A DNA stretch of 64,000 nucleotides, from positions 21,156-85,155 of the forward strand of contig DAOULY010000004.1 of NCBI GenBank assembly GCA_034414595.1. Reading direction: 5' to 3'. The stretch is from Dehalococcoidia bacterium (GTDB lineage: Bacteria; Chloroflexota; Dehalococcoidia; SZUA-161; JAUWZY01). Both the position numbers and the translations under genes were made by a program. The notes beneath the pieces were generated by a model, which did no database searches, was not told where the DNA came from, and worked only from the letters and a program-made list of their open reading frames with translations. Below, piece by piece: positions 1,991 through 55,338 of the stretch; positions within the stretch are counted from its first letter, which is position 1, and the number at the start of each line of letters is the position of its first letter.

Positions 1991-2263
1991 TGTCATCAGC
2001 TTCATATCGTCGAGTGGGCTAAACCTCTAATGTGACCCGCTGCATCGCCTAACTGGGTGGTCCTCATCTTCGACTGTAATAAGGGGAATAAGTAAGGGAC
2101 ATGAGACTATCCTCAAACTTCATTCTTACGATAGCGGTGCCTTGTAGAAATTCATCCCTTGATTTACATTCAAGTTAAGTTTATGGCAATATCTTGACAA
2201 CCACGTTGCATGGCTATATCATTGGCACCAAGAGCAGTGAGGCATGAGGATTGCTGCATTTCG

Positions 2264-2303
2264 AGTTGATATGGGAAATCCCGGTTAAATAAATCATAAT
2301 TTA
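2264..2303 (+). repeat. conserved leader element Y, copy 1
   Basis: gttgatatgggaaatcccggttaaataaatcataattta directly upstream of the 2309 ATG. Near-identical to 6808-6848 upstream of an unrelated gene. Confidence 0.6.
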
Positions 2304-2308
2304 AAAAT

Positions 2309-2491
2309 ATGGGAGAGCAAGAAATTAAAGAAAAAAAGGATAAAAAAGGAATAGCTGGTGTTTTTATCCCAGCCGGTTTGTTTATTGGCATGGGAATCGG
2401 CTTCTTAACAGATAATCTTGTTCCTGGTATGTTTATCGGTCTTGGCGCAGGATTTGCACTATTTGCCATCTTCCTTTTCATTATAAGATAG
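2309..2491 (+). CDS. small membrane protein (two Gly-rich hydrophobic helices)
   Basis: 60-aa ORF. K/E-rich N-terminus followed by [17 protein letters not shown] and [19 protein letters not shown]. Weak RBS. Confidence 0.4.
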
Positions 2492-2601
2492 AAAAAGAAG
2501 TACGAAATATTTCATCGCCGTCACGGCACTTTTTCTCTCTACTACTGTACTTTTCTCTGAGCCAGTTACTAAAACAACAAAGTAATCTTGGGGGAATAAT
2601 T

Positions 2602-3552
2602 ATGAAAGCAATTGTATGCACAAAATACGGACCACCGGAAGTTCTTCAGCTCCAAGAGGTAGACAAACCTTCTCCCAAGGACAATGAAGTACTGATAAGA
2701 ATATATGCAACAACCTGTCACGTAGGGGATGTGAGAATTCGAAGTTTCAAAGTCCCTTTCTGGCAAATACTCCCTTTTCGAATATATTTAGGTCTTCTAA
2801 AACCAAAAAGACCTATACTAGGAATGGAGTTAGCCGGGGAGATTGAAGCAGTAGGCAAAAATGTAACACTATTTAAGGAAGGTGACCAGGTTTTTGCATT
2901 AGCCGGTTTTGGTTTCGGCGCTTATGCTGAGTACATATGTCTGCCTGAAAAACCTGAAGAAAGGGAGATTGGGAAAAAAGGGTTGGTGGCAATAAAACCG
3001 GTCAATACGTCATATGAGGAAGCCGCCGCCGTTCCTGGTGGGGGACTAACAGCATTGAGTATTCTTAGAAAGGCAAATATCCAGAGCGGACAAAAAGTCC
3101 TTATCTATGGAGCTTCTGGAAGTGTAGGTACTTATTCGGTACAGCTTGCCAAGTACTTTGGGGCTGAAGTTACCGGGGTATGCAGTACAACGAATCTAGA
3201 AATGGTTAAATCTCTGGGAGCCGATAAGGTAATTGATTACACTAAAGAGGATTTTACCCAAAGCGGTCAGACCTATGATTTTATCTTGGACGCTGTAGGC
3301 AAGATTTCGTCTTCACGAGGTAAAAAGTCTCTAAAGAAAAAAGGAATCTATTATAACGTTAATTATGTATCAGGCGACTTAAAGACTGGAGATTTAGTTT
3401 TCCTTAAAGAGCTTATTGAGGCGGGAAAGCTAAAAGCGGTCATAGATAGACGCTATCCATTGGAACAGATTGTCGAGGCTCACAGGTATGTTGAAACAGG
3501 ACACAAAAAGGGAAATGTAGTCATCACTGTGGCCCATGAGAGCAAAGGCTAA
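2602..3552 (+). CDS. NAD(P)-dependent medium-chain dehydrogenase/quinone oxidoreductase, paralog 1
   Basis: 316 aa. [16 protein letters not shown]-terminus, GASGSVG Rossmann motif, C-terminal [17 protein letters not shown] typical of the MDR/zeta-crystallin family. RBS gggggaataatt before the ATG. Confidence 0.9.
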
Positions 3553-4555
3553 CAAATTGGGAGGAATAATTATTAAAGCGATTATATGCACAAAATTCGG
3601 AACACCGGATGTTCTTCAGCTAAAAGAGGTAGAAAAACCTGTTCCTAAAGATAATGAGGTACTGGTAAGAATACATGCGACAACAGTAAACGCAGGGGAC
3701 TGTAGAATGCGAAGTTTCACAGTCCCTCCCTTGTTCTGGCTCGTCGGGCACATGGCTTTAGGTTTCACAAAGCCAAAGAAAGCCATACTTGGGATGGAGT
3801 TGGCCGGCGAAATTGAATCAGTGGGTAAAAATGTTAAGCGATTCAAAGAAGGTGAGCAGGTTTTTGGATCTACCTACTGGGAGAATTTAGGTGCTCATGC
3901 CGAGTACAAGTGCATGTCTGAAGACGGGATGGTGGCAATAAAACCGGCCAATACGACCTATGCGGAAGCCACCGCTGTTCCTATTGGAGGACTTACAGCA
4001 TTACACTTTCTTAGAGATAAGGCGAATGTTCAGAGCGGACAAAAAGTCCTTATCTATGGCGCATCCGGAAATAATGGGACTTTTGCGGTACAGCTTGCCA
4101 AGTACTTTGGAGCGGAAGTTACTGGAGTATGCAGTACCACGAATTTAGAATTAGTGAAATCTCTGGGAGCCGATAAGGCAATTGATTACACTAAAGAGGA
4201 TTTTACCAAAACCGGTGAGACCTATGACATTATTTTTGACACGATAGGCAAGATTTCGTTTTCACAATGTAGAAGCTCGCTAAAGGACAAGGGATTCTTT
4301 CTTGAAGCTGTCATGGTTGCTGTTCAAGCGCGATGGCTTTCAATGACAAGCGGCAAGAAAGTAATAGGTGGAGAAGGACCCGAAAAGATCGAAAATCTGA
4401 TTTTCCTCAAAGAACTTGTTGAGGCAGGAAAGATAAAACCGGTTATAGATAGAGCATATCCGTTGGAGCAGATTGCTGAGGCTCACAGGTATGTCGAAAC
4501 AGGACACAAAAAGGGAAATGTAGTCATAACTGTGGCCCATGAGAGCAAAGGCTAA
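3536..4555 (+). CDS. NAD(P)-dependent medium-chain dehydrogenase, paralog 2 (start uncertain)
   Basis: Highly similar to paralog 1, with the same C-terminal 20 aa and the same downstream caaattgggagga. The codon aligned with the paralog ATG is ATT (3572-3574). The only in-frame ATG is 3536, inside the end of paralog 1. Confidence 0.85.
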
Positions 4556-4573
4556 CAAATTGGGAGGAAACTC

Positions 4574-5560
4574 ATGAAAGCGATTGTATGCACAAAATAC
4601 GGACCGCCCGATGCTCTTAAATTTGAAGAGATCCCCAAGCCGACCCCAAGCGACGATGAAGTCCTGGTGGAAGTTCATGCAGCATCCGTAGTTTTTTCTG
4701 ACACGACTGTCGTGAGAGGTAAACCGTTCGTGGCCCGCCTAATGGGCCAGGGGCTGCTAAGACCAAAATACAAGATACCCGGAGTTGACATAGCGGGGCG
4801 GGTTGAAGCAGTTGGCAGAAATGTGAAGCAGTTTCAGCCAGGTAATGAGGTATTCGGGGACCTATCCCAGTGTGGTCGGGGCGGTTTTGCCGAGTATGTA
4901 TGTGCTAGCGAAAATGCATTGGCGTTGAAACCAGCTGGTATGACATTCGAGGAAGCAGCTGCTGTACCTCAAGCGGCAGTCGTCGCTCTGCAGGGTCTTC
5001 GCGATAAGGGGCAGATTCAGCCGGGACAAAAGGTCTTGATTAACGGTGCGTCTGGTGGTAACGGTACGTTTGCAGTGCAGATTGCCAAATCGTTCGGGGC
5101 TGAAGTCACCGGCGTGTGCAGCACGAGGAATTTGGACATGGTGCGCTCGATTGGTGCAGACCGGGTCATCGATTACACTCAAGAAGATTTCACCAAAAGC
5201 GCGCAGCGTTATGACCTGATTCTTGCTTGTGCGGGATATCGTTCGATTTTCGATTACAAACGTGCCCTGAGCCCCGGGGGGATTTATGTAATAGTCGGAG
5301 GCTCCACAGCTCGAATTTTACAAATTGTTTGTCTGGGACCATTGATTTCTATGACCACTAGTAAGAAAATGGGCATCCTGCTGCATAAACAAAATAAGGA
5401 CCTGGCTTTTATGATAGAGCTTTTGGAGAGAGGCAAAGTGAAACCTGTTATAGATAAAGTTTACCCGTTAAGGGAGGTTTCCGAAGCCTTCAGGTATTTT
5501 GGAGAAGGACAAGCCAAAGGAAAAGTAGTCATAACTGTGGAGCATAATAACAAAACCTGA
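4574..5560 (+). CDS. NAD(P)-dependent medium-chain dehydrogenase, paralog 3
   Basis: 328 aa. [23 protein letters not shown]-terminal GQAKGKVVITV. More diverged and more GC-rich than paralogs 1 and 2. Confidence 0.9.
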   Translation: MKAIVCTKYGPPDALKFEEIPKPTPSDDEVLVEVHAASVVFSDTTVVRGKPFVARLMGQGLLRPKYKIPGVDIAGRVEAVGRNVKQFQPGNEVFGDLSQCGRGGFAEYVCASENALALKPAGMTFEEAAAVPQAAVVALQGLRDKGQIQPGQKVLINGASGGNGTFAVQIAKSFGAEVTGVCSTRNLDMVRSIGADRVIDYTQEDFTKSAQRYDLILACAGYRSIFDYKRALSPGGIYVIVGGSTARILQIVCLGPLISMTTSKKMGILLHKQNKDLAFMIELLERGKVKPVIDKVYPLREVSEAFRYFGEGQAKGKVVITVEHNNKT

Positions 5561-5562
5561 TA

Positions 5563-5639
5563 ACCTTGCAGGACAGCAGGAAGCCATCAATCGCCTGCTT
5601 GATAGTTGTTACCGTGGTATCTTTCGTGTGAGTAGACAT
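5563..5639 (-). pseudogene. tyrosine recombinase N-terminal remnant (about 25 codons)
   Basis: Minus strand reads MSTHTKDTTVTTIKQAIDGFLLSCKV, matching MSKKVTTIKQAIDGFLLSCKV of the intact gene at 54724. It is truncated where it abuts the stop of the 4574-5560 gene. Confidence 0.8.
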
Positions 5640-5648
5640 TGAACCTCT

Positions 5649-5705
5649 CCTTCTTCTCTTCTGATTTGCGAGAGACGATATACGAGAATTTGGAGAAGGT
5701 CAATA
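5649..5705. repeat. junction repeat R (integrase 5'-flank sequence), copy
   Basis: ccttcttctcttctgatttgcgagagacgatatacgagaatttggagaaggtcaata matches 54734-54799, 8363-8428 and 9910-9973. Confidence 0.85.
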
Positions 5706-5993
5706 GCAAATCAATCGTGTTATTGCAAATATTTAAGGGCGGAAATAAACCTTACTTGGTGCGTGGCAAGGATCCCTACATAGGAGTTGGATCAAATGAT
5801 TATATTCCTCTAAGACATGAACCGAATGAATTAATAATAAGAGGTAGTTGATTGCCTACGATCGATCATCAATGGTAACCTTCATAATTCAATCCTCTAC
5901 TGATTTCCATTTCGCCTCATTTTACCCCGCAACATTCGTTCCAACTTCTGGAAACCAGCTTTATCTGCTTGGCGCGGGATCACCTCACATTGA

Positions 5994-6593
5994 TCATTCA
6001 GCACTCATCAAGTGGTCAGACAATTCTTTATCGGCACTTGTTTCTCTCAACGCTTCCTCGCGAGCCTTAGTATCTTCCGCAATACCATCTTTCACCATCT
6101 GCCATACGGCTAACACATATGAGAGCCAGCCGAGATCATATGCCGATTCGGCTTGTTGATTATGATTTGTGTTATCGTCCAGTGCGTATTGTCGGCAAAA
6201 CCACTCTTTGTTCTCGTTTTGCCGATCCGCGAAAGTCTTAACACCGGGTAGATGAAGAGCTATACGGCTGCTCGGAGCCTGCTCTTGACGTTGGAGAACC
6301 TCGAGACGATGGAAAAGGTCTTCAAAGTCTTGTAGAGAGGCCAACTGAACCCACAGCTTCGCGTCTTCATGACCCAGTGCCTCCCAGTCGATTTCTTGTT
6401 CGCGGTATTCTTGCCTAAGCCGTTCCACCGCTACTTGCATTCCCTCTTCATCATTTGCTAGAGCACTTGCGCGCTCATATGCTTTAATGCGTGCTTGTAG
6501 AGCACCTCGACAGACTTGAGAGATGTTGATTGCGTTTCTAAAGGGTTTTAGACTGGCTATAAGATCATCGGGCACATTGATACCGATTCTCAC
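5994..6593 (-). CDS. hypothetical protein with ribbon-helix-helix-like N-terminus
   Basis: 199-aa ORF with GTG start and a GGAGG RBS 5 nt upstream. The N-terminal MRIGINVPDDLIASLK...ISQVCRGALQARI looks like a CopG/RHH strand-helix-helix. The remainder is unassigned. Confidence 0.5.
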   Translation of the reverse strand: MRIGINVPDDLIASLKPFRNAINISQVCRGALQARIKAYERASALANDEEGMQVAVERLRQEYREQEIDWEALGHEDAKLWVQLASLQDFEDLFHRLEVLQRQEQAPSSRIALHLPGVKTFADRQNENKEWFCRQYALDDNTNHNQQAESAYDLGWLSYVLAVWQMVKDGIAEDTKAREEALRETSADKELSDHLMSAE

Positions 6594-6764
6594 AAGATAC
6601 CTCCGTATGTACTTACCTTAGATATTATACCATATTTGTCAAGCATACACACTATCATATACATACGCTTTTCACATCACTTTACTTCCCCCAGAAATCG
6701 GTCAAGAGTAAATGTTATTGTGTGTGCTGAAGGAAAGGGGGCTTACTTATATGCAGGAACTCCA

Positions 6765-6800
6765 ACTTAACAAGTGGTATCATTATTGGGGGCCGGTCAA
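6765..6800. repeat. junction repeat X, copy 1
   Basis: acttaacaagtggtatcattattgggggccggtcaa. Related copies at 8435-8469 and 10133-10158. Confidence 0.7.
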
Positions 6801-6807
6801 CCACAGT

Positions 6808-6848
6808 AGTTGATATGGGGAATCCCGGGGTTAAATATAATTTAAGGA
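6808..6848 (+). repeat. conserved leader element Y, copy 2
   Basis: gttgatatggggaatcccggggttaaatataatttaaggagg, running into the RBS of the 6858 gene. Matches 2264-2303. Confidence 0.6.
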
Positions 6849-6857
6849 GGAGAGAAG

Positions 6858-8315
6858 ATGGCGGTGCGAACTCGTGAAGAATATATTGAAAGCCTCAGGA
6901 GGCAAAGGCCTAAGGTTTATATGGCAGGAGAGAAAGTGGATAACATTGTCGATCATCCTGCCTTCCAAGCGGGGATAAACAATGCCGCGGTGACTTTCGA
7001 GCTAGGGCATGATCCCAAATACCAGGAGCTGGCGACGGTGATGTCTCCCCTTATCGGTGAGAGGATTAGCAGGTATACCCAAGTATATCAAGATGAAGGG
7101 GATGCCATCGCCACAGTAAAGCTAGCGAGAGGGCTTGCAGATTACTTATGCCCATGCTCCTACAGATGTCTCACTTCTAATCAGGTAAATGCTGCATGGG
7201 CACTCAGCTATGACATTGATCAGAAACATAACACTGAGTATCATCAGAGGGTTGTCAACATTGTAGAGGAGATTCAGAGAAACGATTGGATATTAGGGGG
7301 CTCATCAATAGATCCTAAGGGAGACAGAAGCTTAAGCCCTGGCCAGCAACTAGATCCGGATATGTATGTACGCGTAGTGGAGAGGAGGAAAGATGGCATA
7401 GTGTTAAGGGGAGCAAAGGCCAATAGCACGGCTGCCCCGTACACAAATATGGTAGGTATTATCCCAACGGGGCGGATTTCAGAAGCTGAGAAGGATTATT
7501 GTGTCGCCTGCTTTACCCCGGTGGATGCCGAAGGAATGACCTTCATATGTAGACCCCCAAACAGACCCCCTGAGCCAAAAGAGCTGGAGAATCCATTCAG
7601 CTCGAAACACGGTGGCCATGTGGAATGTATGCTAGTTCTCGACGATGTATTTGTACCTTGGGAGAGGGTCTTCATGTGCGGCGAGTATGAGTTCGCTCCC
7701 GCATTCGCGAGAATGAGGAACCCCGCACATGCCATGCATAAGTGTATGTGCCGATGGGTGGGTATAGACCTTGCCATCGGCGCTACTGCATTGATAGCTG
7801 ATTACAACGGCCTTGATCTAGAGAAAGCTCCTCACATATGGGATTATATCGTTGAGATGATCATGAGCGCCGAAATCATGTACTCGTGCGCACTTTCATC
7901 TGCAATGCAAGGCTCGAGACATGGTTCAGGAGTATATTTCCCAAAGGCAGCGCCAGCATCCGCTGGCAAGGTTTACGGAAGTAAGAAGATAGGCGAAGAG
8001 CATTTCTGGATGCAAGATGCCGCCGGTGGTTTAGTGGCGACGATGGCACCAGAGGAGGACTTCCAAAATCCAGAAACGGCAAAGATTCTGGAAAAATATT
8101 ATCAGGGGAGACAGGGCGTGCCAACAGAGCATAGAATACGCGCCATTAAGCTCATCGAGGACTTAATCGCATCTGATTTTGCCGCGTGGTATCAGGCCCT
8201 GTGTATTAGTGGAGGGGGGCCGCCGCTAAAGCACAAAAACGCCGTTATGGAGGAATATGACTTGGAGGAGAGTAAGAGGAAGGCAATGATCGCCGCTGGA
8301 ATAGTAAAGAAGTAG
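6858..8315 (+). CDS. 4-hydroxybutyryl-CoA dehydratase/vinylacetyl-CoA isomerase family protein (HpaB/AbfD superfamily)
   Basis: 485 aa. N-terminal REEYIESLRRQRPKVYMAGEKVDNIVDHP, PKGDRSL, KDGIVLRGAKA. Cys/His pattern CPCSYRC ... HAMHKCMC sits at the positions of the AbfD [4Fe-4S] ligands. Strong aaggagg RBS. Confidence 0.85.
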   Translation: MAVRTREEYIESLRRQRPKVYMAGEKVDNIVDHPAFQAGINNAAVTFELGHDPKYQELATVMSPLIGERISRYTQVYQDEGDAIATVKLARGLADYLCPCSYRCLTSNQVNAAWALSYDIDQKHNTEYHQRVVNIVEEIQRNDWILGGSSIDPKGDRSLSPGQQLDPDMYVRVVERRKDGIVLRGAKANSTAAPYTNMVGIIPTGRISEAEKDYCVACFTPVDAEGMTFICRPPNRPPEPKELENPFSSKHGGHVECMLVLDDVFVPWERVFMCGEYEFAPAFARMRNPAHAMHKCMCRWVGIDLAIGATALIADYNGLDLEKAPHIWDYIVEMIMSAEIMYSCALSSAMQGSRHGSGVYFPKAAPASAGKVYGSKKIGEEHFWMQDAAGGLVATMAPEEDFQNPETAKILEKYYQGRQGVPTEHRIRAIKLIEDLIASDFAAWYQALCISGGGPPLKHKNAVMEEYDLEESKRKAMIAAGIVKK

Positions 8316-8428
8316 TGACCTGCCCCCCCGAAAACGAGTCCAGGTCAAATGCTCTAGGTGTCTTTCTTCTCTTCTGATTTGCGCGAGACGATATACGAGA
8401 ATTTGGAGAAGGTCAATAGGGATGTGGG
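8316..8428. repeat. junction repeat L+R, copy
   Basis: L is 8316-8362, tgacctgcccccccgaaaacgagtccaggtcaaatgctctaggtgtc, with the inverted repeat TGACCTG/CAGGTCA. R is 8363-8428 and is identical in sequence to the integrase 5' flank. The repeat begins 1 nt after the stop codon of 6858-8315. Confidence 0.85.
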
Positions 8429-8434
8429 ATTACG

Positions 8435-8469
8435 ACTTAACAAGTGGTGTCATTATTAGGGCCGGTCAA
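8435..8469. repeat. junction repeat X, copy 2
   Basis: acttaacaagtggtgtcattattagggccggtcaa. Confidence 0.7.
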
Positions 8470-8565
8470 TGATTTGGCTTTTTTACAACTCATGTCTTTG
8501 CCATATATGAGTTTAGCCTCAAGTGGATTAATCGAGTTTTATTTCAACTTTGGTCGTCTTGCATA

Positions 8566-9795
8566 TTACAGATTGCCCATTAACTCCACAAGTAAATTCG
8601 TACAAACTTCACCGAAGTGTAAGTCATTTATATGCGCATCTAACTCTATAACCCTTACATCAGTATTGGTCAGATTCTTCTTTAGCGATTCTATGAACCC
8701 TTCATCAGCTATAGGATCATAGAAAAAACCCCCTTCTACATCGAACGGCGAGAGTCCGCGTTTCGGAAAGACAACCGCTGTTGGCGCTTTGGCTTCATTA
8801 AGCTTTTCAGCTACAAATTTCCCAGCTCTTTCTAACTCTTCTCTACTTGCTCTAAAATCAGTGAACAATGGACTCCACTGGTAGAAACTTCGGGTTTTAT
8901 ACATTGGAGGTATATTCCGAGGAGAGAAACTTAAAACGTCCATGAAGCCAGGTACAAATATATGAGGTGTGCCAGCCTTCACTATTGTCTCTAATCTTGA
9001 GATACCATAATTGGGTGCTGGGGATAGCTCTCCAACTATTAATTCTTGAATTATATCGTGCGTAATCATATTTAGAACAGCCATAATTGCACCTTCATTG
9101 ATGATGTCTTCCATGAATTTAGAGCCGATTCCCGCTGGTACAAAGATAACCATTTCATATCCTTTTTTCTCAAGTATTTCTTTAGCATAAAAAACAGCTA
9201 TTGTAGCACCCCCATACATAGTGGCACCTATTGCGTTTTTACCAGGCTCTACTTTCCTCCCTGCATTTTTAACCATGCCCGCTATGGCAGCAGCCGCATT
9301 ATCGAATGCGTTTTTTGTAAAGAAATTTAGAGGTTGCACATCACTAGGTAAGGCCAACACCATAACATCCCTTGTATGAACTATGTTTTCCATACCTGAA
9401 AGGCTCGCGACGGTGGTTATTATTAGCTTGGGAATGCCGAGAGGTAAGTGTTTCATTCCTGTTCCTGCCAAACATGCACCGTCATGACCTCCAACCGAGA
9501 TCACGCCATTAAATCTCCCTTCTAAATAAAACTTAGAAAGAATATTGGATATTCCTTCAGCCACTTTTTCCATTTGAACAATCTTAATTTCCTTTTCTAA
9601 GGCATCAACAGTATAGCCTATCGCTTTAGCAACTTCTTCCCTAGATATATCAGGGATTAAATGCCTAGGCCTGCCGCGCAAACTTGAATCCATAAGAAAT
9701 GTTTTCATACCCATTTCTTCTATCCTATTTTTAAGGTACTCTACTTCCTGCTCTTTAGTATCAAGTGTAGCAATAATGGCAACAACTTTATCCAT
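8566..9795 (-). CDS. UPF0261 / Tm-1-like ATP-binding domain protein
   Basis: 409 aa. The N-terminal MDKVVAIIATLDTKEQEVEYLKNRIEEMG is the characteristic start of the UPF0261 family. Two Rossmann-like halves. Confidence 0.8.
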   Translation of the reverse strand: MDKVVAIIATLDTKEQEVEYLKNRIEEMGMKTFLMDSSLRGRPRHLIPDISREEVAKAIGYTVDALEKEIKIVQMEKVAEGISNILSKFYLEGRFNGVISVGGHDGACLAGTGMKHLPLGIPKLIITTVASLSGMENIVHTRDVMVLALPSDVQPLNFFTKNAFDNAAAAIAGMVKNAGRKVEPGKNAIGATMYGGATIAVFYAKEILEKKGYEMVIFVPAGIGSKFMEDIINEGAIMAVLNMITHDIIQELIVGELSPAPNYGISRLETIVKAGTPHIFVPGFMDVLSFSPRNIPPMYKTRSFYQWSPLFTDFRASREELERAGKFVAEKLNEAKAPTAVVFPKRGLSPFDVEGGFFYDPIADEGFIESLKKNLTNTDVRVIELDAHINDLHFGEVCTNLLVELMGNL

Positions 9796-9863
9796 GAGCT
9801 TCCTTTCTCGACTTCTCCATTAAGGATAGAATAAGCCCTGGTCATAATTCTCGCAAGCTAGAT

Positions 9864-9973
9864 TGACCTGCCCCCCGAAAACGAGTCCAGGTCAAATGCT
9901 CTAGGTGTCCTTCTTCTCTTCTGATTTGCGCGAGACGATATACGAGAATTTGGAGAAGGTCAATCGGGATGTG
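9864..9973. repeat. junction repeat L+R, copy
   Basis: Same L element (9864-9909, one C shorter in the C-run) followed by R (9910-9973). Confidence 0.85.
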
Positions 9974-10132
9974 GTATAGAGTTTAGCTGTATTAGCTGTA
10001 AAAGATCAATTAGACGAAAAACAAACATGGTGCTATAATTTTGGCTACTAACAAAATGGAGAGTAGTTGTGGTAAAAACTCAAGAGGGTAAAAAGAAAGT
10101 ATACGTTCATGAACATACAAAACGAAAGCTAG

Positions 10133-10158
10133 GTGGTATCATTATTGGAGGCTGGTCA
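10133..10158. repeat. junction repeat X, partial copy 3
   Basis: gtggtatcattattggaggctggtca, just upstream of the 10181 start. Confidence 0.55.
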
Positions 10159-10180
10159 TGGCAAAAGGGGGGGTGTTCTG

Positions 10181-13100
10181 ATGAATAAAGTCATAGTACA
10201 CTTATCAGATCTTCATTATCGCCGTGGATGGATTGAGGAGCAAGGTGTTGTATTAAATGGGTTTTTTAAAGATTTGGGCAACCAATTGGCTAAGATACAT
10301 AACGCCGACTATTATTTGGTTTTTTCGGGGGATATTGTCCAATCTGGCGACGATTCCAACAGCTATGACGAATTTATCAGTAATTTTGATAATAAATTAA
10401 CCGAACTTGGAATTCCGATTAGTAACAGAATCTGTGTTCCGGGAAATCACGATGTCTCAACAGAGATAGTAGAGTTAGACAAAGTTACTCATGAAGGCGT
10501 GATATCTCAGAGGTTGGATGAGACATGTTTTAACGATTATATTTCTAATCCATCAAATATACTGACGGGTAAATTCCAGAAGTATAGTAAATTCGAACAA
10601 GCATTTGCAGAGTATGGCTTATCTTGTCCTACTACAATAACGGGAACGGGATGGACAATCGATGATAGCATTGGTATCTATTGTTTAAACACTGCCTTGT
10701 GTAGTATCGGCGGTTCGGCAAAAGGCGGCGAAGTTCACCCTGATAGGGGACGTTTGGCAATAGATACGCGCAAATTACATGCTTGGAACCAAGAGTGTCA
10801 ACATACTGTGAAAATACTTGTAATGCATCATCCACTCGATTGGTTAATTCCTTGGGCAAAGCAAGAACTTGAGACCATATTACGCAAAGATTTCGCTTTA
10901 TGTCTTTCTGGCCACGCACACGGTCAACATGTATTTCATTCAATTAACAAATATGGCTCTCTTGTCCAATGTTCTGCACCACCATTGTTTACAAAGAAAG
11001 CTGGCGAATTAGGATACTCGTTTATTAATATTAGCCCAGCAATAGGAGTGGTTGATATCACGTATAGACAGTGGACTAAACATCAAAGTTTTGTTGTAGG
11101 AGGGAGTTTCTCTGATTCCGACGATGGAAGAGTAATTATAGAAAAACGCGAAGAATCGCCCATTGATCGACTCCTTACAAAAAGATTGGAAGACGCGTTG
11201 GTGTCTTTTGCTTATCAACCCAAAATATGGATTGAACCGGTTCTAGCTAAGCGTCCAGAATATGCTCACACTGAAGGTAATAGAGATGATCCCAAGATTG
11301 AGGTATCTGATTTGGTTTCAAAGCCAAGATCAACGATAGTAAAAGCACCTCCTCAATTTGGATTAACTTGTTTAGCTCATTACCTTATCAAAAAAGCATG
11401 GCAAGACCAAGAATCAAAATGGCTATATCTTGATTCAAAGTATATGAAGTCTAATTACCCTGATGTTAGAAAATATATAGAGAGCGAACTCAGAAGCTTT
11501 GATTGTGAAATGCAAGATATTAAATGTTTAGTTCTTGATTCGTGGACTGATCGTATAAAAACATCCTTAACACTCCTGCAAAACGTTATTAAGCTATCTG
11601 GAGATGTTCCAGTCATCATTATGCAGGCTACTGATGACATTACCTTTGCTGACGAATCAAGTCAAACGCTTCATGGTAGAGAGTTCGACATTCTTTATTT
11701 ATGGGCACTAACTCGCGGGAATGTACGTAAGGTTGTCACTGATTATAATGAGAAAAAGCACATAGGGGATGATGATGCGGTCGTATCAAGGGTTGTATCA
11801 GACCTGGAAATGCTTAACCTTCATCGAACCCCGTTGAATTGCCTGACTTTGCTAAAGGTGTCTGAAATTGATTTTGACGAAAGCCCTGTAAATCGTACCG
11901 AAATGATAAAAAGAGTCCTATTTCTTATTTTTAATACCGAAATTCCTACGTATAAAAGCCGCCCAGACTTGAAGGATTGTGAGTATGTATTGGGGTATTT
12001 TTGTGAGATCATGCTCAGGCAGAGCCAATATTTTTTTACAAGGGATGACTTTTTAAATACTTTGGGGCAATTCTGTAAGGATAGGGTTATTGACCTTGAT
12101 GTCGACGTTCTATTCGATATGTTATATGATCATAACATTTTAGTTGATCACGGAAGTATCTTTAATTTTCGGTTTGCTTACTGGATTTATTACTTCGCAG
12201 CACACAGAATGTATCATGACAAGGATTTTGCTGATTTCATTTTCAAGGATATGCGATATGCAAACTATCCAGAAATGATTGAGTTTTATACAGGGATCGA
12301 TCGTCGCCGTGAAGACGCCTTAACTGTTTTAATAAAAGATATTCAAATAAATCGCAAAAAAGTGCAGAAAAAGAGTGGCCTTCCCAATGAATTAAATCCG
12401 TATCGACTTGCACGATGGAAGCCATCTGTCAAAACACTTGAACGGATGCATAGTGAAATCAGCAATGGCGTGAAGGATTCAAATTTACCTAGCTCAGTCA
12501 AAGATCAATATGCAGATCGTCAGTATGAACCAGCACGACCTTATTATCAGGGTGTTAGAGATATTTTTTACGAGTACTCTTTACTGATACTGATGCAAAC
12601 AGTGAGAGCGGCATCAAGGGCACTTCGAAATAGCGATTATGTGTCTCCGAATATTAAGCGTCAGTTACTTGATGAAATCGGAGGTGCGTGGAAACAAATA
12701 TTGCAGGTACTAGTGGCTTTGACACCATTACTTGCCACGAAAAAAAAAGCTACATTCGATGGGGCAAACTTCCTCTTGTTAGGAAATTTCGGTGACACGC
12801 CTGAAGAGAGATTCAACATGATATTGAGTGAGCTTCCTAATAATGTCGTTACATGGTTTAAAGACGATCTGCTTTCACATAAAATGGGGCCTTTGCTGAT
12901 CGAGCGATCGAATGAAGAGAGCGATGATCTTAAAAAGCATAATTTTGTATTGTTATTGATTAAGCAAAGGCCTCGCAATTGGGTAATGCAGGTTCGAGAA
13001 TATATCAAGTCCATTTCGAAGAATTCATTTTACCTTATGGACGTATATGTACAGCTCTATATTGAATATGAATATAGTTTTACATCTCCTGATACTTTAC

Positions 13101-13216
13101 GTGAAATAAAGTACCTTATTAAAACGGCTGCAGCTAAACAATTTTTTGGAGCTATTGGGGAAAAGTCCAGAGGCAAGGTTCCAGACGCAGCACTGCCAGA
13201 GAGGTTGGTTGAGTGA
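10181..13216 (+). CDS. calcineurin-like metallophosphoesterase fused to a STAND/AAA-like NTPase module with degenerate P-loop
   Basis: All five MPE motifs are present: LSDLHY, FSGDIV, PGNHD, VMHHPL, SGHAHG. The central IVKAPPQFGLTCL sits where a Walker A would be (Gly to Ala, Lys to Leu). A CLVLDSW Walker-B-like strand follows, then a long helical C-terminal region. The ATG at 10181 follows aaaggggggg. The longer ORF from 10133 starts inside repeat X. Confidence 0.8.
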   Translation: MNKVIVHLSDLHYRRGWIEEQGVVLNGFFKDLGNQLAKIHNADYYLVFSGDIVQSGDDSNSYDEFISNFDNKLTELGIPISNRICVPGNHDVSTEIVELDKVTHEGVISQRLDETCFNDYISNPSNILTGKFQKYSKFEQAFAEYGLSCPTTITGTGWTIDDSIGIYCLNTALCSIGGSAKGGEVHPDRGRLAIDTRKLHAWNQECQHTVKILVMHHPLDWLIPWAKQELETILRKDFALCLSGHAHGQHVFHSINKYGSLVQCSAPPLFTKKAGELGYSFINISPAIGVVDITYRQWTKHQSFVVGGSFSDSDDGRVIIEKREESPIDRLLTKRLEDALVSFAYQPKIWIEPVLAKRPEYAHTEGNRDDPKIEVSDLVSKPRSTIVKAPPQFGLTCLAHYLIKKAWQDQESKWLYLDSKYMKSNYPDVRKYIESELRSFDCEMQDIKCLVLDSWTDRIKTSLTLLQNVIKLSGDVPVIIMQATDDITFADESSQTLHGREFDILYLWALTRGNVRKVVTDYNEKKHIGDDDAVVSRVVSDLEMLNLHRTPLNCLTLLKVSEIDFDESPVNRTEMIKRVLFLIFNTEIPTYKSRPDLKDCEYVLGYFCEIMLRQSQYFFTRDDFLNTLGQFCKDRVIDLDVDVLFDMLYDHNILVDHGSIFNFRFAYWIYYFAAHRMYHDKDFADFIFKDMRYANYPEMIEFYTGIDRRREDALTVLIKDIQINRKKVQKKSGLPNELNPYRLARWKPSVKTLERMHSEISNGVKDSNLPSSVKDQYADRQYEPARPYYQGVRDIFYEYSLLILMQTVRAASRALRNSDYVSPNIKRQLLDEIGGAWKQILQVLVALTPLLATKKKATFDGANFLLLGNFGDTPEERFNMILSELPNNVVTWFKDDLLSHKMGPLLIERSNEESDDLKKHNFVLLLIKQRPRNWVMQVREYIKSISKNSFYLMDVYVQLYIEYEYSFTSPDTLREIKYLIKTAAAKQFFGAIGEKSRGKVPDAALPERLVE

Positions 13217-13221
13217 GACGA

Positions 13222-13317
13222 TTAGCCTCCCAGTCTATCCACCGGACTATATTTCTTGTGTGCCTCCACTGCATCATAGCATCTCACTGCCTGGCAATAC
13301 TGATTATTAGTCATCAT
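13222..13317 (-). pseudogene. tyrosine recombinase C-terminal remnant (32 codons incl. stop)
   Basis: Minus strand reads MMTNNQYCQAVRCYDAVEAHKKYSPVDRLGG*, matching MMTNRYCQAVGCYDAIESHKKYSPVDNLSFK* of the intact gene, including the catalytic-Tyr region. Confidence 0.8.
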
Positions 13318-13319
13318 GC

Positions 13320-13344
13320 CCTGCCCCCCCGAAAACGAGTCCAG
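13320..13344. repeat. junction repeat L, left part only
   Basis: cctgcccccccgaaaacgagtccag, joined directly to the integrase C-terminal remnant. Confidence 0.7.
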
Positions 13345-13420
13345 TTAAAATTTTAGACTATGGACTAAAGGAAATGGGGACGCAATGGGAGGAGTCAAGC
13401 AAAAACCTGTTATTACTAAA

Positions 13421-13462
13421 TGGCAGCGGAGGGATTCGACCCCCCGACCAAAGGCTTATGAG
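13421..13462 (-). other. tRNA(CAU) 3'-half-like copy (anticodon loop to acceptor end); candidate att site
   Basis: Minus strand ctcataagcctttggtcggggggtcgaatccctccgctgcca, versus ctcataagcctttggtcgcaggttcgaatcctgccgctgcca in the tRNA at 56007-56078. The sequence 5' of the anticodon loop does not fold as a tRNA. Confidence 0.65.
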
Positions 13463-13752
13463 ATTAGCCCTCGAAAGGCTGGCAACCGCTTGCCTCCTTT
13501 CGAGGTACATTATCACAGGATTTCCCGGATCAGTCAACATCTGATCCTAGATACTTCTTCGTGCATAAATATGAGACTACGATATCTAATACATAGAACT
13601 CCAGACACGATTTTCAAGGCGGTGTTTCCCTTCGCCTAGATTGGCCTCGGTTGACCTTACACAGTTAGCAGATCGTGTGATGTACTGTGGAGCAGATAAG
13701 AGATGACCAGCTCATCTCCCTTTATCCGCCTGCAGCTTTTCACTCCGGTCTA

Positions 13753-14252
13753 CACCATCTCCAGGTTCGAGGATATATTAGGGGATATAGGAAGGACAGC
13801 TATGTCCGTCAAAGGTCGGTGACTCCCAAACTGTGGAGGAGGAGGGAGTATATCTCCAATGCTTCTCCACGACACTCAGTTGAAGTATTCAGTGGTAGTT
13901 ACATTTCCACCGTCGTCCTCGTCATTTCCCTTTGCTACTAATGCGAGCTTTTAGCTCGTCCTTACGGATATCATTTTCGGCATCACTGTCCGCCATTCGG
14001 GTCCTGCATCACCTCCGGGTTTGAGGATGTATCAGAGGATAAAAGGAGGATAGCTATGTCCGTCAAAGGTCGGCGATCCCTAAAGTCTGGTCAGGAAGAG
14101 GGTCAGGGTGAGGAGGGTCAGGAGGAGGGTCAGGGTGGAGGAGGAGCTTTCACCACCACCACCTCCCCCTCCACCTGTCACTTCGTTGTCAATGCGAGCT
14201 TGTGCTTCTCCCTGCGTATACGACCTTTCGCGTCGTTGTCCGCATCTCCGTG
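13753..14252. repeat. two tandem ~250-bp units with a G/A-rich low-complexity tract
   Basis: Unit 1 is about 13753-14006 and unit 2 about 14007-14252. Both contain ...gaggat.t.t.a.ggat...agctatgtccgtcaaaggtcgg... and ...aatgcgagctt... The units differ by indels that break every reading frame. Confidence 0.6.
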
Positions 14253-15020
14253 CGATAGCGCGTTCAAGATACGAACTGATCCCCTAGACTTGAGTGCTAT
14301 AGTGATACCTTGCGCAAGTCTCCGGATCCCCGATGCATGGCAACTCAGCTACGATGGAGCTAGTACCACAAGTATACCATCAAGCAGAGGTTGTAGCAGC
14401 AGCATGCTGGATAGATGTCGGATTCATGACGCATGGCCCTGGGAAAGCGTCCTATCGCTCTTCACGAGGTGAGCAATGACTTCATGAACGTAGGAGCAAC
14501 CTGGTTGCCTTCCGCAAGACCGTAACTTGCCTGGCTGATGCCGGTAGGTCGCTGTCGCCCCATTGAATAACGGTGTTCGGGCTCACTTTGGGAACGAATT
14601 CTACCATGGGGTAGGTTCGCTTTCTACATATCCCCACATTCAGGATGCCTTGGTGTTCTGTACATGCCCATATTCGTAATGCTACCCCAGTATTTCCAAT
14701 ATTACAGCCAATGCTACCCAAACCCAGATTGGGAGCGTGTCCTACGGTAGATGAGATTACCACTCCTATCTATGGTAATCTAGAAACAGGAACAAGCTAG
14801 TTCTACCCAGGAATCAGGTCGTTTCAGTGACCATGCTCTCACTCCAGCACAGGAATATGGTGCTGAACATTACCGGCTGTACTTTTCGATGTTTTGTATT
14901 CTAGCCAACATCAGGACCACGAAAGAAGTCATGGCTATGTGGTCTTTTGGCAGTCAACAGCAGTTTTTTCTCATGGCATTTTTAAGGCTTCTAAAAAGTG
15001 GTAAGGCTTTTTGGAATGGT

Positions 15021-16439
15021 TTAGGGGATGAGACCCTTCTTAGAAAGGAGCGGCTTGAGATCTACCATGTGGCCATCTAAAGCCGCATCCTTCTCGCTTA
15101 GACCCAGGGCTAGTGCCATGAGCTGAGTGAAGTAGAAGATCGGCATCCTATACTCGTGGCCTTCCCTCCAACTCAGTGCTGGTTGCCGCCAGTCGAGGTT
15201 AGCGTTGCACATCGGGCAGGCGATCACTATGGCATCCGCACCCACTGCTTGGGCGTTGTCCAATATCCGCTGAACGAGATTGAGGCACTTGTCGGTATCG
15301 ATAATGCTCAGACTGCCGCCACAGCAGTCGGTCTTGAAGGACCAATCAAGCGCATCAGCACCGCACGTCTCCATCAAGTGGTCCAAATTCATTGGGTATT
15401 CCGGGTGCTCAGCTCCGGTCACCTCCGGTGGCCGTGTGAGCAGGCAGCCGTAGTAGCACACTACCTTCAATCCAGAGAGGGGCTTCTTCACCTGCTTGGC
15501 TAACACCGACAGCCCCACGCGTTTGACGAAGGTATCGATCGCATTCTCAATCTCCACCCCACCCTCATACTCATAGCCTAACTGCTTAGTGACATTATCT
15601 TTCACCGAGGGGTCAGCATTGATGTTGTAGGCAGCGTGCTTGAGCCTTGAGAAGCACATGGCGCAAGGAACAGTCACTGCTTTGTGGCCCTTGCTTTCGA
15701 TCAGGGCCAAGTTCTTCAGAGACAGGGCAGTAGCCAGTTCCTGAGAGTTCCAGTGGGCTGGGGTGCTCCCACAGCAGAGCCAGCCTTTGGGTTCCTCAAG
15801 CTCCAACCCCAGGGTATTGGCCACGGCACGGAAGGATCTATCGTACTCGGAAGCACTGGCGTGAAGAGAGCAGCCGGGATAATAGGCAACAGCATTGGCA
15901 AGAGGCTGTGAGCCCTCTTTGCGGCGAAGTTTTCGGGGGTAGCCAGCTCTTTTAGGGGTGAGTTTGAGACGCCCGGCGCTGAACATCTTCATGCCGAGGA
16001 AGGCATCTTTAAAGGGCTTCCTCCTTCTCAGATTCATCTCCAGCATAAGACCCAGCTCGTACATTCTCCCCCACCAATTGATGGAGCGCAGGCCGGCATT
16101 GATAAAAGCTGTTGAGGAGGGCATTATGGGATCGATCTTCTGCTCTTGGGCTATGATCTTCAGGGTATCAATGACCTGAGCGATATCAATGCCATTGGGA
16201 CAGCGAGTAGTGCAGGTTTGACAACTAGCGCAGAGCCAGATGGCCTCGGAACGCAGCACCTCCTCCAAACGCCCCAGTTGCAGCAGCCGCATCATCTGGT
16301 TCGGCTTCAGATCCATCTCCGAGGAAAGGGGACAACCCATGGTGCAGTTTTTGCACTGATAGCAAAGTAGAATGTTTGCGGCACATCTTTCCCTCATCAA
16401 GTCCGCTGCGCTCTTGGCTCCTGATGCTGCTGTAGTCAT
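15021..16439 (-). CDS. hdrCB: heterodisulfide reductase HdrC-HdrB fusion protein
   Basis: N-terminal 2x[4Fe-4S] motifs (CYQCKNCTMGCP, CASCQTCTTRCP) followed by two CCG domains (YYPGCSL...WLCCGS; CYYGCLL...DCCGGS). Start set at the ATG at 16439, 6 nt after GGAGG. The track ORF extends to 16505, into metF. Confidence 0.9.
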   Translation of the reverse strand: MTTAASGAKSAADLMRERCAANILLCYQCKNCTMGCPLSSEMDLKPNQMMRLLQLGRLEEVLRSEAIWLCASCQTCTTRCPNGIDIAQVIDTLKIIAQEQKIDPIMPSSTAFINAGLRSINWWGRMYELGLMLEMNLRRRKPFKDAFLGMKMFSAGRLKLTPKRAGYPRKLRRKEGSQPLANAVAYYPGCSLHASASEYDRSFRAVANTLGLELEEPKGWLCCGSTPAHWNSQELATALSLKNLALIESKGHKAVTVPCAMCFSRLKHAAYNINADPSVKDNVTKQLGYEYEGGVEIENAIDTFVKRVGLSVLAKQVKKPLSGLKVVCYYGCLLTRPPEVTGAEHPEYPMNLDHLMETCGADALDWSFKTDCCGGSLSIIDTDKCLNLVQRILDNAQAVGADAIVIACPMCNANLDWRQPALSWREGHEYRMPIFYFTQLMALALGLSEKDAALDGHMVDLKPLLSKKGLIP

Positions 16440-16452
16440 CGCTATCCTCCAT

Positions 16453-23075: not shown

Positions 23076-24358
23076 AGAGCGCCCCTTTCAATCTACATTA
23101 CTGGCAAGCGCAGAGAGGGTTTCCATAGATGTTTGGTAGACGCCGTCCCAGTATAGTACAACTCGTCATTTTTGTCTAGTTTCTGTACAGTTTTAGTGGG
23201 ATGCCCCTGTTTTTAATACTACCTATAATTGGAGAGTTCTTGCCTTTTCCTCTGCTCGGTTGGCCTTCTCTACTTGGTTCTTCTCTTAGTATTGCTTGGC
23301 ATACTTAGTGTGAGGCCGCCAACTACTGTAATCTTGCCTCCAGGCTCGCCGAGGAACGCGACGACCCTATCATGTGAATCTTCAGCAAATCAAAGAGGGG
23401 GAGCTGGGGTATCAATAGGTAGAACTTTTGAGGTGGCCTTTGCTCTCACCATTTGACCCGTCAGCTACCATATGTCAATTCTAACATCAAAAACTAGGCT
23501 CTGCAAAGGGTAAGGAGCAGTTTCTCTGGCAACATTGCGATGTTGTGTTCAAGCCAACATTTTGGGACCACTAGGGAAGACGATTTATCCAATATCTCTT
23601 GGATAAATCGCCATGAAGGGGAAATCTCTCTGATTAGAAGCCAGTTGCTTACTCATATAGAGTTGGCCGAACGAGTCGAGTATGGGGAAAACAGTCTGAT
23701 TATGAAAATGAGCACAGTGGGTGGCGAAGGAAGCATAGTGGCACTTTGTGGTGGCTATTCACTCAGCTGCTTTCATATTCCCAACCTCCAGTTGAACATC
23801 AAGCCCTTCAGGAATATGGGTGGCTTGGTTGGGAAGCGCTTAACTGATCCGTGTTCAATAGGTGGAACCAGGATATAGAGCCCCTTCAATCCAGGGATCA
23901 ATGCTGGATGGTGGGGCAACATTCCACTCAATCGATTCCTTCGGCAGTGTTACATCAGGCAGTACCAGCCGCTCGCCAGAAGATATACCTGGTGGGTTTT
24001 CAAATTTCACATTCACATGTCCTGGAGCGAATACATACAAATCACCAAAGCTCGAACCAGTATCATCCTGTAAAAGCCAGACCTGACCACTGCTCACCTG
24101 AGCATAGTCAATATACTTCTTAGTCACCCCAGAGAATATGTGTCCCATATCACACATGCCTGAAGTAGAGGATTTTCTGCTGGAGAAGCCCTACGCTCAA
24201 TGGACGCAGGAGAAGTGCAATTTATGCTGTTCGGGGTCAGTGAAGAATCTGAGTTTTCGGTCGCTCCGCTACAATTTCTTTCGTCGTCGGAATTTCGTTG
24301 AACTAAAGGGGAACCTCAGCGACCACTGTTGTTCCCTTGCCTAGCGCAGACTGCACAG

Positions 24359-24568
24359 TCAGGGTGTCGTTGACCAACCTGCCCCGCTCGTGCATTCAGC
24401 AGTCCTCTTCTGTTTCACGCTATTGTTGTGCTGCCTCACCGCAACTATGTGTGTTTCTAGTTCGCACAGGTGGCCGCACTGAAGACATTGCTCGTACCAG
24501 CCATTCTGGTCTTTGTCGACCACCACATCACCTTTGCATCTTGGGCAGCTTTTGAATCTTATTATCAT
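24359..24568 (-). CDS. small zinc-ribbon protein
   Basis: 69-aa ORF with CPRC...CLQC, immediately downstream of otsA. Confidence 0.4.
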   Translation of the reverse strand: MIIRFKSCPRCKGDVVVDKDQNGWYEQCLQCGHLCELETHIVAVRQHNNSVKQKRTAECTSGAGWSTTP

Positions 24569-29883: not shown

Positions 29884-29904
29884 GTCTTGTATCTCTATGT
29901 TGAA

Positions 29905-53779: not shown

Positions 53780-54724
53780 CTATTTGAAGCTGAGATTATC
53801 CACCGGACTATATTTCTTATGGCTCTCGATAGCGTCATAGCATCCCACAGCTTGGCAATACCTGTTCGTCATCATCAGCGTAGTATGCCCCAGTAACCTT
53901 TGCAGCATCAGGCTATCCCCTCCATTCTTCAGCCACGTGGTTGCGAAAGTATGCCGAAGCAAATGGGGATGGACATTAATGCCTGTCCTCTTCCTGAGCT
54001 TAATGAAGAGTGTCTCAACGCTACTGTCTTTCAGGGTAACTCCCTTCTCTGTCAGCCATAAGCTCTCATTGTGGCCATTTACCTTGCTTCGAAGTTTCAA
54101 GTATCTCCTTAATGCCTTCCATGTCGTATTGCCGTAGCGGACCACCCTTTCCCCTGTCTTTCCGTCAACCCTCATTAGCTGCTGTTCCATATTGATGTCC
54201 GCCATCTTAATATTGAGCAGTTCCCCTAACCGTAACCCGCAGTCTACCAGAACCAGGATTATGGCCTTGTTCCTTATCCCATCAAAGGTATCCGGAAGGC
54301 TTGATATTAGTTGATTTATCTCGGTACTAATAAGGGATTTTACAACCTTCTTCTCTGCCCTCGGTACTTTTATCTTAACCAGAGAATTGGTTTCCAAAAT
54401 GCCTTCGTTAACCGACCAATTTAACAAGGCTGATAATGCCCGATAGTATTTCTGGACAGTGGTGGAGTTCATAGGCTTCATGGCTCGTGGACAGGTACTA
54501 TTGAAGCGGTGAGGTGTTTCCCTGAGATAAGCCAGGAACTCTCTTAGGTGGTTTGTAGTTATGGCTGAAATATCATCCGGCCAGTTGTAATTAGTGGCAT
54601 ACCATAGAAAGCCTTTGAGCTTGTCCGAGTAACATTCAATCGTTCCGTAAGATTTCCCCTCTACCTTGCAGGACAGCAGGAAGCCATCAATAGCTTGCTT
54701 TATTGTTGTAACTTTCTTAGACAT
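53780..54724 (-). CDS. tyrosine site-specific recombinase/integrase (XerC/D-like fold)
   Basis: 314 aa. N-terminal SAM-like core-binding domain. Catalytic signature DCGLRLGEL (Arg), HLLRHTF (His-x-x-Arg), LLGH, TNRYCQ (Tyr). Only intact copy in the window. Confidence 0.9.
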   Translation of the reverse strand: MSKKVTTIKQAIDGFLLSCKVEGKSYGTIECYSDKLKGFLWYATNYNWPDDISAITTNHLREFLAYLRETPHRFNSTCPRAMKPMNSTTVQKYYRALSALLNWSVNEGILETNSLVKIKVPRAEKKVVKSLISTEINQLISSLPDTFDGIRNKAIILVLVDCGLRLGELLNIKMADINMEQQLMRVDGKTGERVVRYGNTTWKALRRYLKLRSKVNGHNESLWLTEKGVTLKDSSVETLFIKLRKRTGINVHPHLLRHTFATTWLKNGGDSLMLQRLLGHTTLMMTNRYCQAVGCYDAIESHKKYSPVDNLSFK

Positions 54725-54733
54725 TGAACCTCT

Positions 54734-54799: not shown

Positions 54800-54931
54800 T
54801 TAGGAGTTTTTGGTGCAAATCAAATATAAATAGAGTTCGCTTCAGAGTTGATTTTTACGTGATATAATTTATCCTCTAAGAGCTAATATTAATCATCCAA
54901 GCTCAGTGGATTTGCGAGAAGGAGTAACAAC

Positions 54932-55337: not shown

Positions 55338-55338
55338 C

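Follow-up and report, generated by a model that had tools for sequence, protein, structure and literature searches.

Insertion-sequence ends and orphaned integrase promoters in an AT-rich, probably tRNA-Met-associated island of a Dehalococcoidia bacterium

The locus described here lies in a 64,000-nucleotide stretch of DNA from a Dehalococcoidia bacterium (contig DAOULY010000004.1 of assembly GCA_034414595.1; hereafter the window), which comprises an AT-rich segment where genes are separated by short repeats and, 40 kb away, an intact tyrosine integrase gene close to a tRNA-Met gene (Table 1). Three kinds of repeats are at issue, namely R (about 60-65 bp), L (47 bp) and X (about 35 bp). A previous reading of the window made from the letters alone (the sequence-only reading) had taken them as integrase junctions that cut the segment into unrelated single-gene modules, through either tandem island accretion or an integron-like cassette platform. 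All three repeats were found where it had listed them, give or take a few bases, and the Pfam and NCBIfam assignments confirmed that the genes lying between the junctions are functionally unrelated and occupy both strands (HpaB/AbfD, UPF0261, Metallophos plus STAND, and an unmatched 199-aa open reading frame, ORF). From the evidence given below we propose that L and X are the two ends of an insertion sequence (IS) of the IS3 family, and that R is the promoter region of the integrase.

The segment is indeed AT-rich, its G+C content being 0.38-0.49 over 2001-14000 versus 0.50-0.60 for most other DNA of the window (1-kb bins). Four further low bins occur elsewhere, at 23-25 kb and 48-50 kb (0.46-0.49), and the 54-56 kb region has a value of 0.43. 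A tRNA fragment was searched for at the left edge of the segment and none was found.

Table 1. Features of the AT-rich segment and of the integrase locus (positions are those of the window; IRR, right inverted repeat; RBS, ribosome-binding site; UTR, untranslated region)
Feature	Position	Strand	Remarks
AT-rich island remnant	2001-13462		right limit, tRNA-Met 3' fragment; left limit by G+C only
Three tandem paralogous zinc-type MDR dehydrogenase genes	2602-5560	+	Pfam ADH_N/ADH_zinc_N
Integrase N-terminal remnant, 25 codons including start	5563-5639	-	5563-5612 90% identical to 54663-54712
R copy A with RBS, joined to N-terminal remnant	5640-5706	-	TTGACC-17-TATCGT at 5703-5675
199-aa ORF	5994-6593	-	earlier called RHH-like
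X copy A, solo IRR of IS3-family IS	6756-6799	+	tip GGTCA at 6799; 94% over 35 nt to L040 IRR
HpaB/AbfD-family flavoenzyme gene	6858-8315	+	Pfam HpaB_N, HpaB
Shell C, 154 bp, without transposase	8316-8469	+	IS left nt 1-47 (8316-8362), R (8363-8430), IS right (~8435-8469)
UPF0261 family gene	8566-9795	-	Pfam UPF0261, UPF0261_C; NCBIfam PRK02399
Shell E, 295 bp	9864-10158	+	IS left 47 nt (9864-9909), R (9910-9977), 150-nt spacer, IS right (10129-10158)
Metallophos + STAND NTPase gene	10181-13216	+	Pfam Metallophos, nSTAND_NTPase4
Integrase C-terminal remnant, 27 codons (81 nt)	13236-13316	-	78% identical to 53797-53877; tblastn E 8e-10
Longer IS left-end remnant, ~70-85 nt	13317-13395	+	tip abuts integrase C-terminal remnant
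tRNA-Met 3' fragment, 44 nt, anticodon loop to CCA	13419-13462	-	89% identical to 56005-56048
Intact tyrosine integrase, Xer-like, 314 aa	53780-54724	-	Pfam Phage_integrase 6.6e-33
R, native copy: predicted promoter and 5' UTR of intact integrase	54725-54809 (repeat match 54733-54809)	-	
Decayed short tRNA-Met 3' fragment	55202-55223	-	18/22 match
Intact tRNA-Met (CAU), predicted integration target	56006-56079	-	ARAGORN; Rfam tRNA 68 bits

As the sequence-only reading had seen, R stands directly 5' of the only intact recombinase gene and recurs at three further sites. It adjoins the start codon and presents, on the integrase strand, the arrangement TTGACC-17-TATCGT followed by a GGAG-type RBS. 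The four copies in the window are 54733-54809, 5648-5706, 8361-8430 and 9908-9977, and a search of the window for further copies of R, L or X found none; the copy at 5648-5706 is 96-98% identical to the other short copies and 92% identical to that of the intact integrase. Homologs of this integrase are numerous (467 at E<=1e-30), and R also lies 5' of those encoded by eight other Chloroflexota/Dehalococcoidia contigs (loci L002, L003 and L147-L152), directly upstream of the gene in the long contigs L147-L150 and L152, the integrases of which are 86-89% identical. When a pattern of R with 21 specified bases was scanned against 185,579 species genomes it matched only two contigs, both from Dehalococcoidia metagenome-assembled genomes (MAGs), and in both an integrase homolog follows R. 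R was absent from all 120 of the IS-end loci listed (see below), and the scans of viral contigs with the L and R patterns gave no match. The viral contigs did yield 22 matches to an X pattern of 15 specified bases, scattered singles that we took as chance.

We therefore regard R, on the evidence of its position and motifs, as the promoter and 5' UTR of the Xer-like tyrosine integrase, so that any R standing alone would mark an integrase gene that has been lost. The long relatives, too, have such solo R copies, e.g., at 18867-18943 of L149. The 25-codon N-terminal remnant of the integrase begins, as had been described, right after the third MDR (medium-chain dehydrogenase/reductase) gene, 2 nt past the stop codon of this gene (4574-5560). 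At the other flank the C-terminal remnant directly abuts a partial copy of L, also as claimed, but it holds 27 codons and ends at 13316, not the 32 codons attributed to it; a tblastn alignment that carried the remnant into L, up to 13344, was rejected as an overrun, since the integrase homology of the DNA ends at 13316 and the IS begins at 13317. One R copy thus still holds 25 codons of the gene. The view that the segment was acquired horizontally as an island, and that its integrase copies have decayed, is supported. L149 and L150 have, some 250 nt 3' of their intact integrase gene, a 21-codon C-terminal integrase remnant (11181-11243, 86% amino-acid identity to the integrase of the window), which adds to the signs that integrases have turned over repeatedly at this locus.

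Copies of L span 8316-8362 and 9864-9909, and a third, partial one spans 13317-13351 (91%); X was found, as reported, three times (6756-6800, 8426-8469 and 10133-10158). The L core, CCCCCCGAAAACGAGTCCAG, matches at least 120 metagenome contigs. Among the 120 matches listed, it is preceded by TGACCTG in 111, with a random base before TGACCTG, which marks the tip of an IS, and in 57 the start of OrfA (MVRKSYTPEQIINKLREAE...) lies about 60 nt downstream. A full copy of this IS (L035, 1165-2377) encodes OrfA (PF01527) and OrfB (rve, rve_3 and HTH_21); its transposase scores 234 bits on the IS3 transposase model NF033516 of NCBIfam (cut-off 160), and its right end reads ...AAGTGGTACAACTACTGGGGGCAGGTCA. 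The full copies in which the two-ORF architecture of IS3 elements was verified are 1209-1273 bp long. The terminal inverted repeats are of the TG...CA type of this family (TGACCTGCCCCC ... GGGGGCAGGTCA in L035, L040 and in short derivatives), and the repeats of the window fit them, knowing that L begins with TGACCTGCCCCCC and that X ends with GGGGGCCGGTCA. The TGACCTGCCCC ends probably resemble those of the IS407 group. The closest annotated relatives, named 'IS3 family transposase' and located on alphaproteobacterial plasmids, are 68% identical and have the same kind of ends, as illustrated by the Afipia copy (TGAyCTGCCCCC...GGGGGCCAGTCA). In L040 the IRR is ACTTAACAAGTGGTATCAyTATTGGGGGCmGGTCA, 1209 bp from the left inverted repeat (IRL), and the X copy at 6756 is almost identical to it. 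Similarly, the partial L copy at 13317 is homologous to IS left ends at more than 100 loci, from 13317 to about 13390.

From these matches L is identified as the first 47 nt of an IS3-family left end, and X as the last ~37 nt (IRR) of the right end. The claim that L and X are integrase junctions thus falls: these IS termini, present in at least 120 metagenome contigs, are hardly ever associated with integrases (an integrase homolog occurs in only 2 of the 120 IS loci listed), so that nothing ties this IS to recombinases in particular. The proviso attached to the sequence-only reading, that the repeats might be dispersed ones unconnected to recombinase genes, consequently holds for L and X but not for R, which is integrase-linked. 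The TGACCTG/CAGGTCA 'inverted repeat' noticed in L is present, but it belongs to the IS left end; CAGGTCA does not represent a right tip of the IS that an internal deletion brought there, as GTCAAATGCTCTAGGTG is homologous to positions 28-45 of the left end. A possible IS right end beside the integrase remnant of L003 was too weak (score 11, 29 nt) and was not used.

Metagenomes commonly contain short derivatives devoid of transposase, minis of 67-140 bp that keep both tips. A tblastn search of the window found neither a full-length IS nor a transposase gene. Fourteen copies (loci L027-L133), eight of them full-length (1105-1273 bp) and six mini (67-140 bp), were inspected for a target-site duplication of 3-5 nt; none of the 14 had one, nor had either of the two composite units of the window described below. 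This absence is unusual for the IS3 family. Either the lineage leaves no duplication or many of the copies have recombined, and it lowers the confidence in the assignment to an IS sub-group, not in the identity of the ends. Besides, an 81-aa protein is encoded both beside the integrase-R-tRNA-Met locus of L002 (511-756) and beside the full IS of L035 (2811-3056), with 78% identity, which suggests that the IS-bearing contigs derive from related Dehalococcoidia.

The elements L, R and X are assembled, in that order, in two composite units that we call shells C and E. Both have the structure of a miniature inverted-repeat transposable element (MITE), that is, IRL and IRR tips in the correct inverted orientation and no transposase; the terminal inverted repeat of shell C (TGACCTGCCC / GGGCCGGTCA) matches at 9 of 10 positions. 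In both shells R is devoid of the RBS and of the start codon. Their L+R parts are 96.5% identical over 115 nt, and as nucleotide 47 of the IS meets the 5' UTR at an identical base in the two shells, the fusion would have arisen once. They differ by the spacer between R and X, which is 0 nt long in shell C and 150 nt in shell E, where it carries a rightward TG-extended promoter-like site (10011-10039). The two copies lie about 1.4-1.6 kb apart, and the L-R fusion is absent from the 2 MAG contigs and the 120 metagenome loci listed.

The intact integrase gene lies 1.3 kb from the tRNA-Met gene, similarly to L002 and the 5 of 5 long relatives, where this distance ranges from 0.6 to 9 kb; in the long relatives the intact tRNA-Met is 1.5-9 kb upstream of the integrase, and in L002 the two are neighbours. 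The window has only three tRNA-Met sites (13421, 55202 and 56007), i.e., the gene and two 3' fragments. The longer fragment, at 13419-13462, which the sequence-only reading had missed, lies some 100 nt away from the C-terminal remnant of the integrase and is of the same fragment class as those of the relatives; its T-arm differs from that of the gene by paired changes that keep the base pairing. The relatives carry from 1 to at least 7 further tRNA-Met 3' fragments, on both sides of the integrase, plus integrase remnants. These fragments fall into two length classes (~22-31 nt and 38-46 nt), amount to as many as 8 attachment (att) copies in 11 kb, and do separate the units of the array. The integrase near tRNA-Met and the 3'-end repeats at 55202 and 13419-13462 are the hallmarks of a tRNA-anchored island, and the same layout is found in L002 and L147-L152. 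We propose that the att site of this integrase family is the 3' end of tRNA-Met, and that tandem accretion at this gene is a trait of the family. Accretion as such, predicted from the sequence alone, is therefore borne out in the relatives by tRNA-Met fragments, solo R copies and remnants, but not for the modules of the window: no tRNA-Met fragment was found at the L-R-X junctions or anywhere within 2001-13400, so the data do not establish a separate integration of each module. The conserved flank of the distal att site of the relatives (aactgGCC + CTCATAAG) was also sought in the window and not found, and a comparison of the flanks of L002 with the window revealed no synteny.

Several small duplicated modules were observed around these integrases. 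In the window, two tandem modules of ~525 nt, each with a small minus-strand ORF, lie between tRNA-Met and the integrase gene; they share a 168-nt end region (55172-55338 versus 55698-55861, 76%) and the 55202 fragment is in one of them. In L148 a 376-nt module (5538-5913) recurs at 14020-14395. In L152 two modules are repeated (5297-5631 / 16118-16450 and 6576-7023 / 15687-16134), their order being swapped across the integrase. The duplicated modules of L148 and L152 start at tRNA-Met fragments, flank the integrase on both sides and are 97-99% identical, suggesting movement, or recombination, of single modules at the att sites of these relatives.

In the window, the tRNA-Met gene and its 44-nt copy are direct repeats 42.5 kb apart, placed around the integrase and about 40 kb of genes of core-like appearance, with redox and regulatory functions. 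This 40-kb region (13463-53780), of normal G+C content, encodes MTHFR, Hdr-like, hydrogenase, NuoF-like, sigma-54 and two-component system proteins. It is either the cargo of a 42.5-kb tRNA-bounded island, which would be an unusually large metabolic one, or what now separates two AT-rich parts split by a rearrangement.

Taking these data together, we consider it likely that the AT-rich segment is what is left of one or more genomic islands of the tRNA-Met-targeting integrase family, decayed and reworked by IS3-family debris, with MITE-like shells. The following sequence of events would account for it. An IS of this family inserts into the integrase gene of an island, as indicated by the IS tip that meets the integrase C-terminal remnant at 13316/13317. 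Deletions in the disrupted locus would then create, once, an IRL47-R-IRR composite, from which all of the integrase with its RBS and start codon, as well as almost all of the IS, have gone. Keeping both IS tips, this composite could behave as a non-autonomous MITE-like element, and a second intergenic site would have received a copy of it, whether through an IS3 transposase acting in trans or through recombination between IS copies. Copying of such an IS-tipped composite generates similarity that is bounded exactly by the IS tips, thereby making the island look as if it were cut into single-gene modules. On this reading, the L-R-X junctions are not recombination sites of the integrase.

A number of points weigh against this scheme. 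The shells have no target-site duplication, a lack that is uninformative since 0 of the 14 other IS copies have one. The transposase has to be assumed to come from elsewhere, as there is no transposase or full IS in the window. With two shells only, and their fusion seen nowhere else in the MAG contigs and loci inspected, MITE-like mobilisation is indistinguishable from segmental duplication. The scheme does not cover the history of the solo X at 6756 or of the R copy with its N-terminal remnant (5563-5706). Finally, the 40 kb of core-looking genes of normal G+C content between 13419 and 53780 leave a simple tandem-island layout unproven here.

The main alternative to MITE-like copying, to which we allow a minor but real chance, invokes the same elements without mobilisation: the L47-R-X units would result from segmental duplication, unequal crossing-over or gene conversion, and recombination between IS copies, followed by deletions, would have trimmed the cargo. 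It assumes that the island formerly had several full IS copies, and it is favoured by the lack of target-site duplications, by the occurrence of two copies only, close together, and by the several solo IS ends in direct orientation that constitute a substrate for deletions. Yet the similarity of the units is bounded by the left and right tips of the IS, with unrelated DNA outside, as expected from the transposition of an IS-ended unit, and the spacer between R and X is of unequal length. The model in which L, R and X are att-type junctions of modules inserted by a tyrosine recombinase, by accretion or in an integron-like manner, can draw upon the integrase linkage of R, the integrase remnants at the flanks of the segment, and the repeat-bounded small modules of the relatives, some of which are duplicated or permuted. 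We nevertheless find it very unlikely, because modules of the relatives are delimited by tRNA-Met 3' fragments instead of L, R or X, with no such fragment between the modules here, while L and X are the termini of an IS spread over unrelated contigs, with an integrase homolog in so few of them. The integron-like version fares no better. Similarly to an integron, the locus combines a tyrosine recombinase with mostly single-gene, unrelated modules split by short repeats, but its genes occupy both strands, its repeats consist of IS ends and a promoter, and the intact integrase is 40 kb away from the array. The integrase scores far below the cut-off of the integron integrase (IntI) models (55 bits on TIGR02249, cut-off 265; 27.9 bits on PRK15417, cut-off 435), its best models being the Xer-like XerA (174 bits) and XerC (157 bits), both below their cut-off. 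Moreover, the L-R-X DNA has no attC-like fold, the energy of -10.4 kcal/mol being weaker than that of 199 of 200 shuffles (z +1.8).

The order of the modules could also be an assembly artefact caused by mis-joins at repeats of 60-115 nt that are 96-98% identical in a metagenome-assembled contig, and short-read unitigs of the same samples (Logan unitigs of two sequencing runs, reached via exact-protein look-ups) do break inside R, so that the assembly graph branches there. This is hardly credible, however, given that the unitigs reproduce 5653-8362 (99.96%; R_A-ORF-X_A-HpaB-L_C) and 8388-9900 (100%; part of R_C-X_C-UPF0261-L_E), that the copies are told apart by diagnostic substitutions and a C6/C7 tract, and that even a wrong order would not affect the identity of L, R and X. 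A bolder proposal, for which we see a small chance, is that the Xer-like family maintains a cassette-type array at tRNA-Met in Chloroflexota, that the AT-rich segment is an old part of it where the att sites have been erased, and that the shell is a mobile divergent-promoter unit. The relatives fit it, through the repeated module of L148 and the swapped modules of L152. If it were true, small and often single-gene modules, bounded by 22-46-nt tRNA-Met 3' fragments, would be moved, duplicated and re-ordered in trans, and the L47-R-X shell would feed the UPF0261 gene and the STAND defence gene.

Returning to the decayed island with IS3-family debris, its components are comparable to known systems. 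In Dehalococcoides, the ssrA islands are built in tandem, one site-specific integration after another being directed to the 3' end of a single small-RNA gene, with the serine recombinase DsiB and a 20-bp repeat (PMC3146451), and the tycheposon-type islands of Prochlorococcus contain scattered partial tRNAs and fragmented integrases (bioRxiv 10.1101/2020.12.28.424599). The window resembles both types by its predicted accretion at a small-RNA gene, its 3'-end direct repeats, integrase fragments and low-G+C variable region with defence and niche cargo; it has a tRNA-Met gene, two fragments thereof, one intact integrase and two integrase remnants. It differs from the ssrA islands by its recombinase, of the Xer-like tyrosine type, and by its target, tRNA-Met, and from both types in that the modules of 5563-13462 are divided by IS debris, not by att repeats. 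As for the shells, they are akin to the MITE-like and solo-end derivatives of IS3-family elements, given that L and X match the ends of 1.2-kb elements with OrfA (HTH_Tnp_1) and OrfB (DDE rve). Unlike such derivatives, they enclose a foreign insert (the promoter and 5' UTR of a tyrosine integrase), belong to an IS lineage without flanking duplication, and have no autonomous copy in the window.

Regarding the other genes of the segment, the product of 10181-13216 is probably a single-gene anti-phage defence system, a candidacy that stems from its match to the PADLOC model PDC-S60 (E 4e-57, residues 5-926, nearly full length); the DS8 anti-phage model of NCBIfam matches it weakly, below the cut-off. 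The 199-aa ORF, earlier likened to ribbon-helix-helix (RHH) proteins, had zero matches in Pfam, NCBIfam, PADLOC and PDB sequences. The three MDR paralogs (62-88% identity) make up repeat families D1, D2 and D4, and tRNA was the sole Rfam match of the window at gathering thresholds. Other repeats were noticed. A ~40-nt sequence, AGTTGATATGGGrAATCCCGG..TTAAATA, occurs at 2264-2304 and 6808-6845 (81% identical, marginal E of 0.007), 5' of an ORF for a 60-aa membrane protein and of the HpaB-family gene, and a decayed X-like sequence may lie at ~2213-2235, at the left edge of the island. In 13741-14243, just right of the tRNA fragment, a unit of ~254 nt is present twice in tandem (64% identity overall, 79% within an 87-nt core); these units overlap short ORFs, one of which has a Gly/Glu-rich repeat. 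Further away, a 99-nt direct repeat (24297-24395 and 29899-29997, 92% identical) has its copies 5.6 kb apart, the second lying at the 3' terminus of a gene for a PAS/GAF histidine kinase.

Neither the IS3-derived shells nor the tRNA-anchored island that probably holds them is new in kind. They nevertheless call for caution, as repeats that cut an island into single-gene modules beside integrase scars mimic cassette junctions; here, they are IS ends plus an orphaned integrase promoter. Two tools for annotation ensue. On the one hand, TGACCTGCCCCCCGAAAACGAGTCCAG ... AAGTGGTATCAyTATTGGGGGCAGGTCA are diagnostic ends of an IS3-family element abundant in sediment Chloroflexota. On the other hand, tRNA-Met emerges as the probable att site for an integrase family that is very common in Chloroflexota, and the Xer-like elements that target it are common in Chloroflexota/Dehalococcoidia. 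Both site-specific accretion and IS debris thus shape the variable, defence-carrying regions of these genomes.

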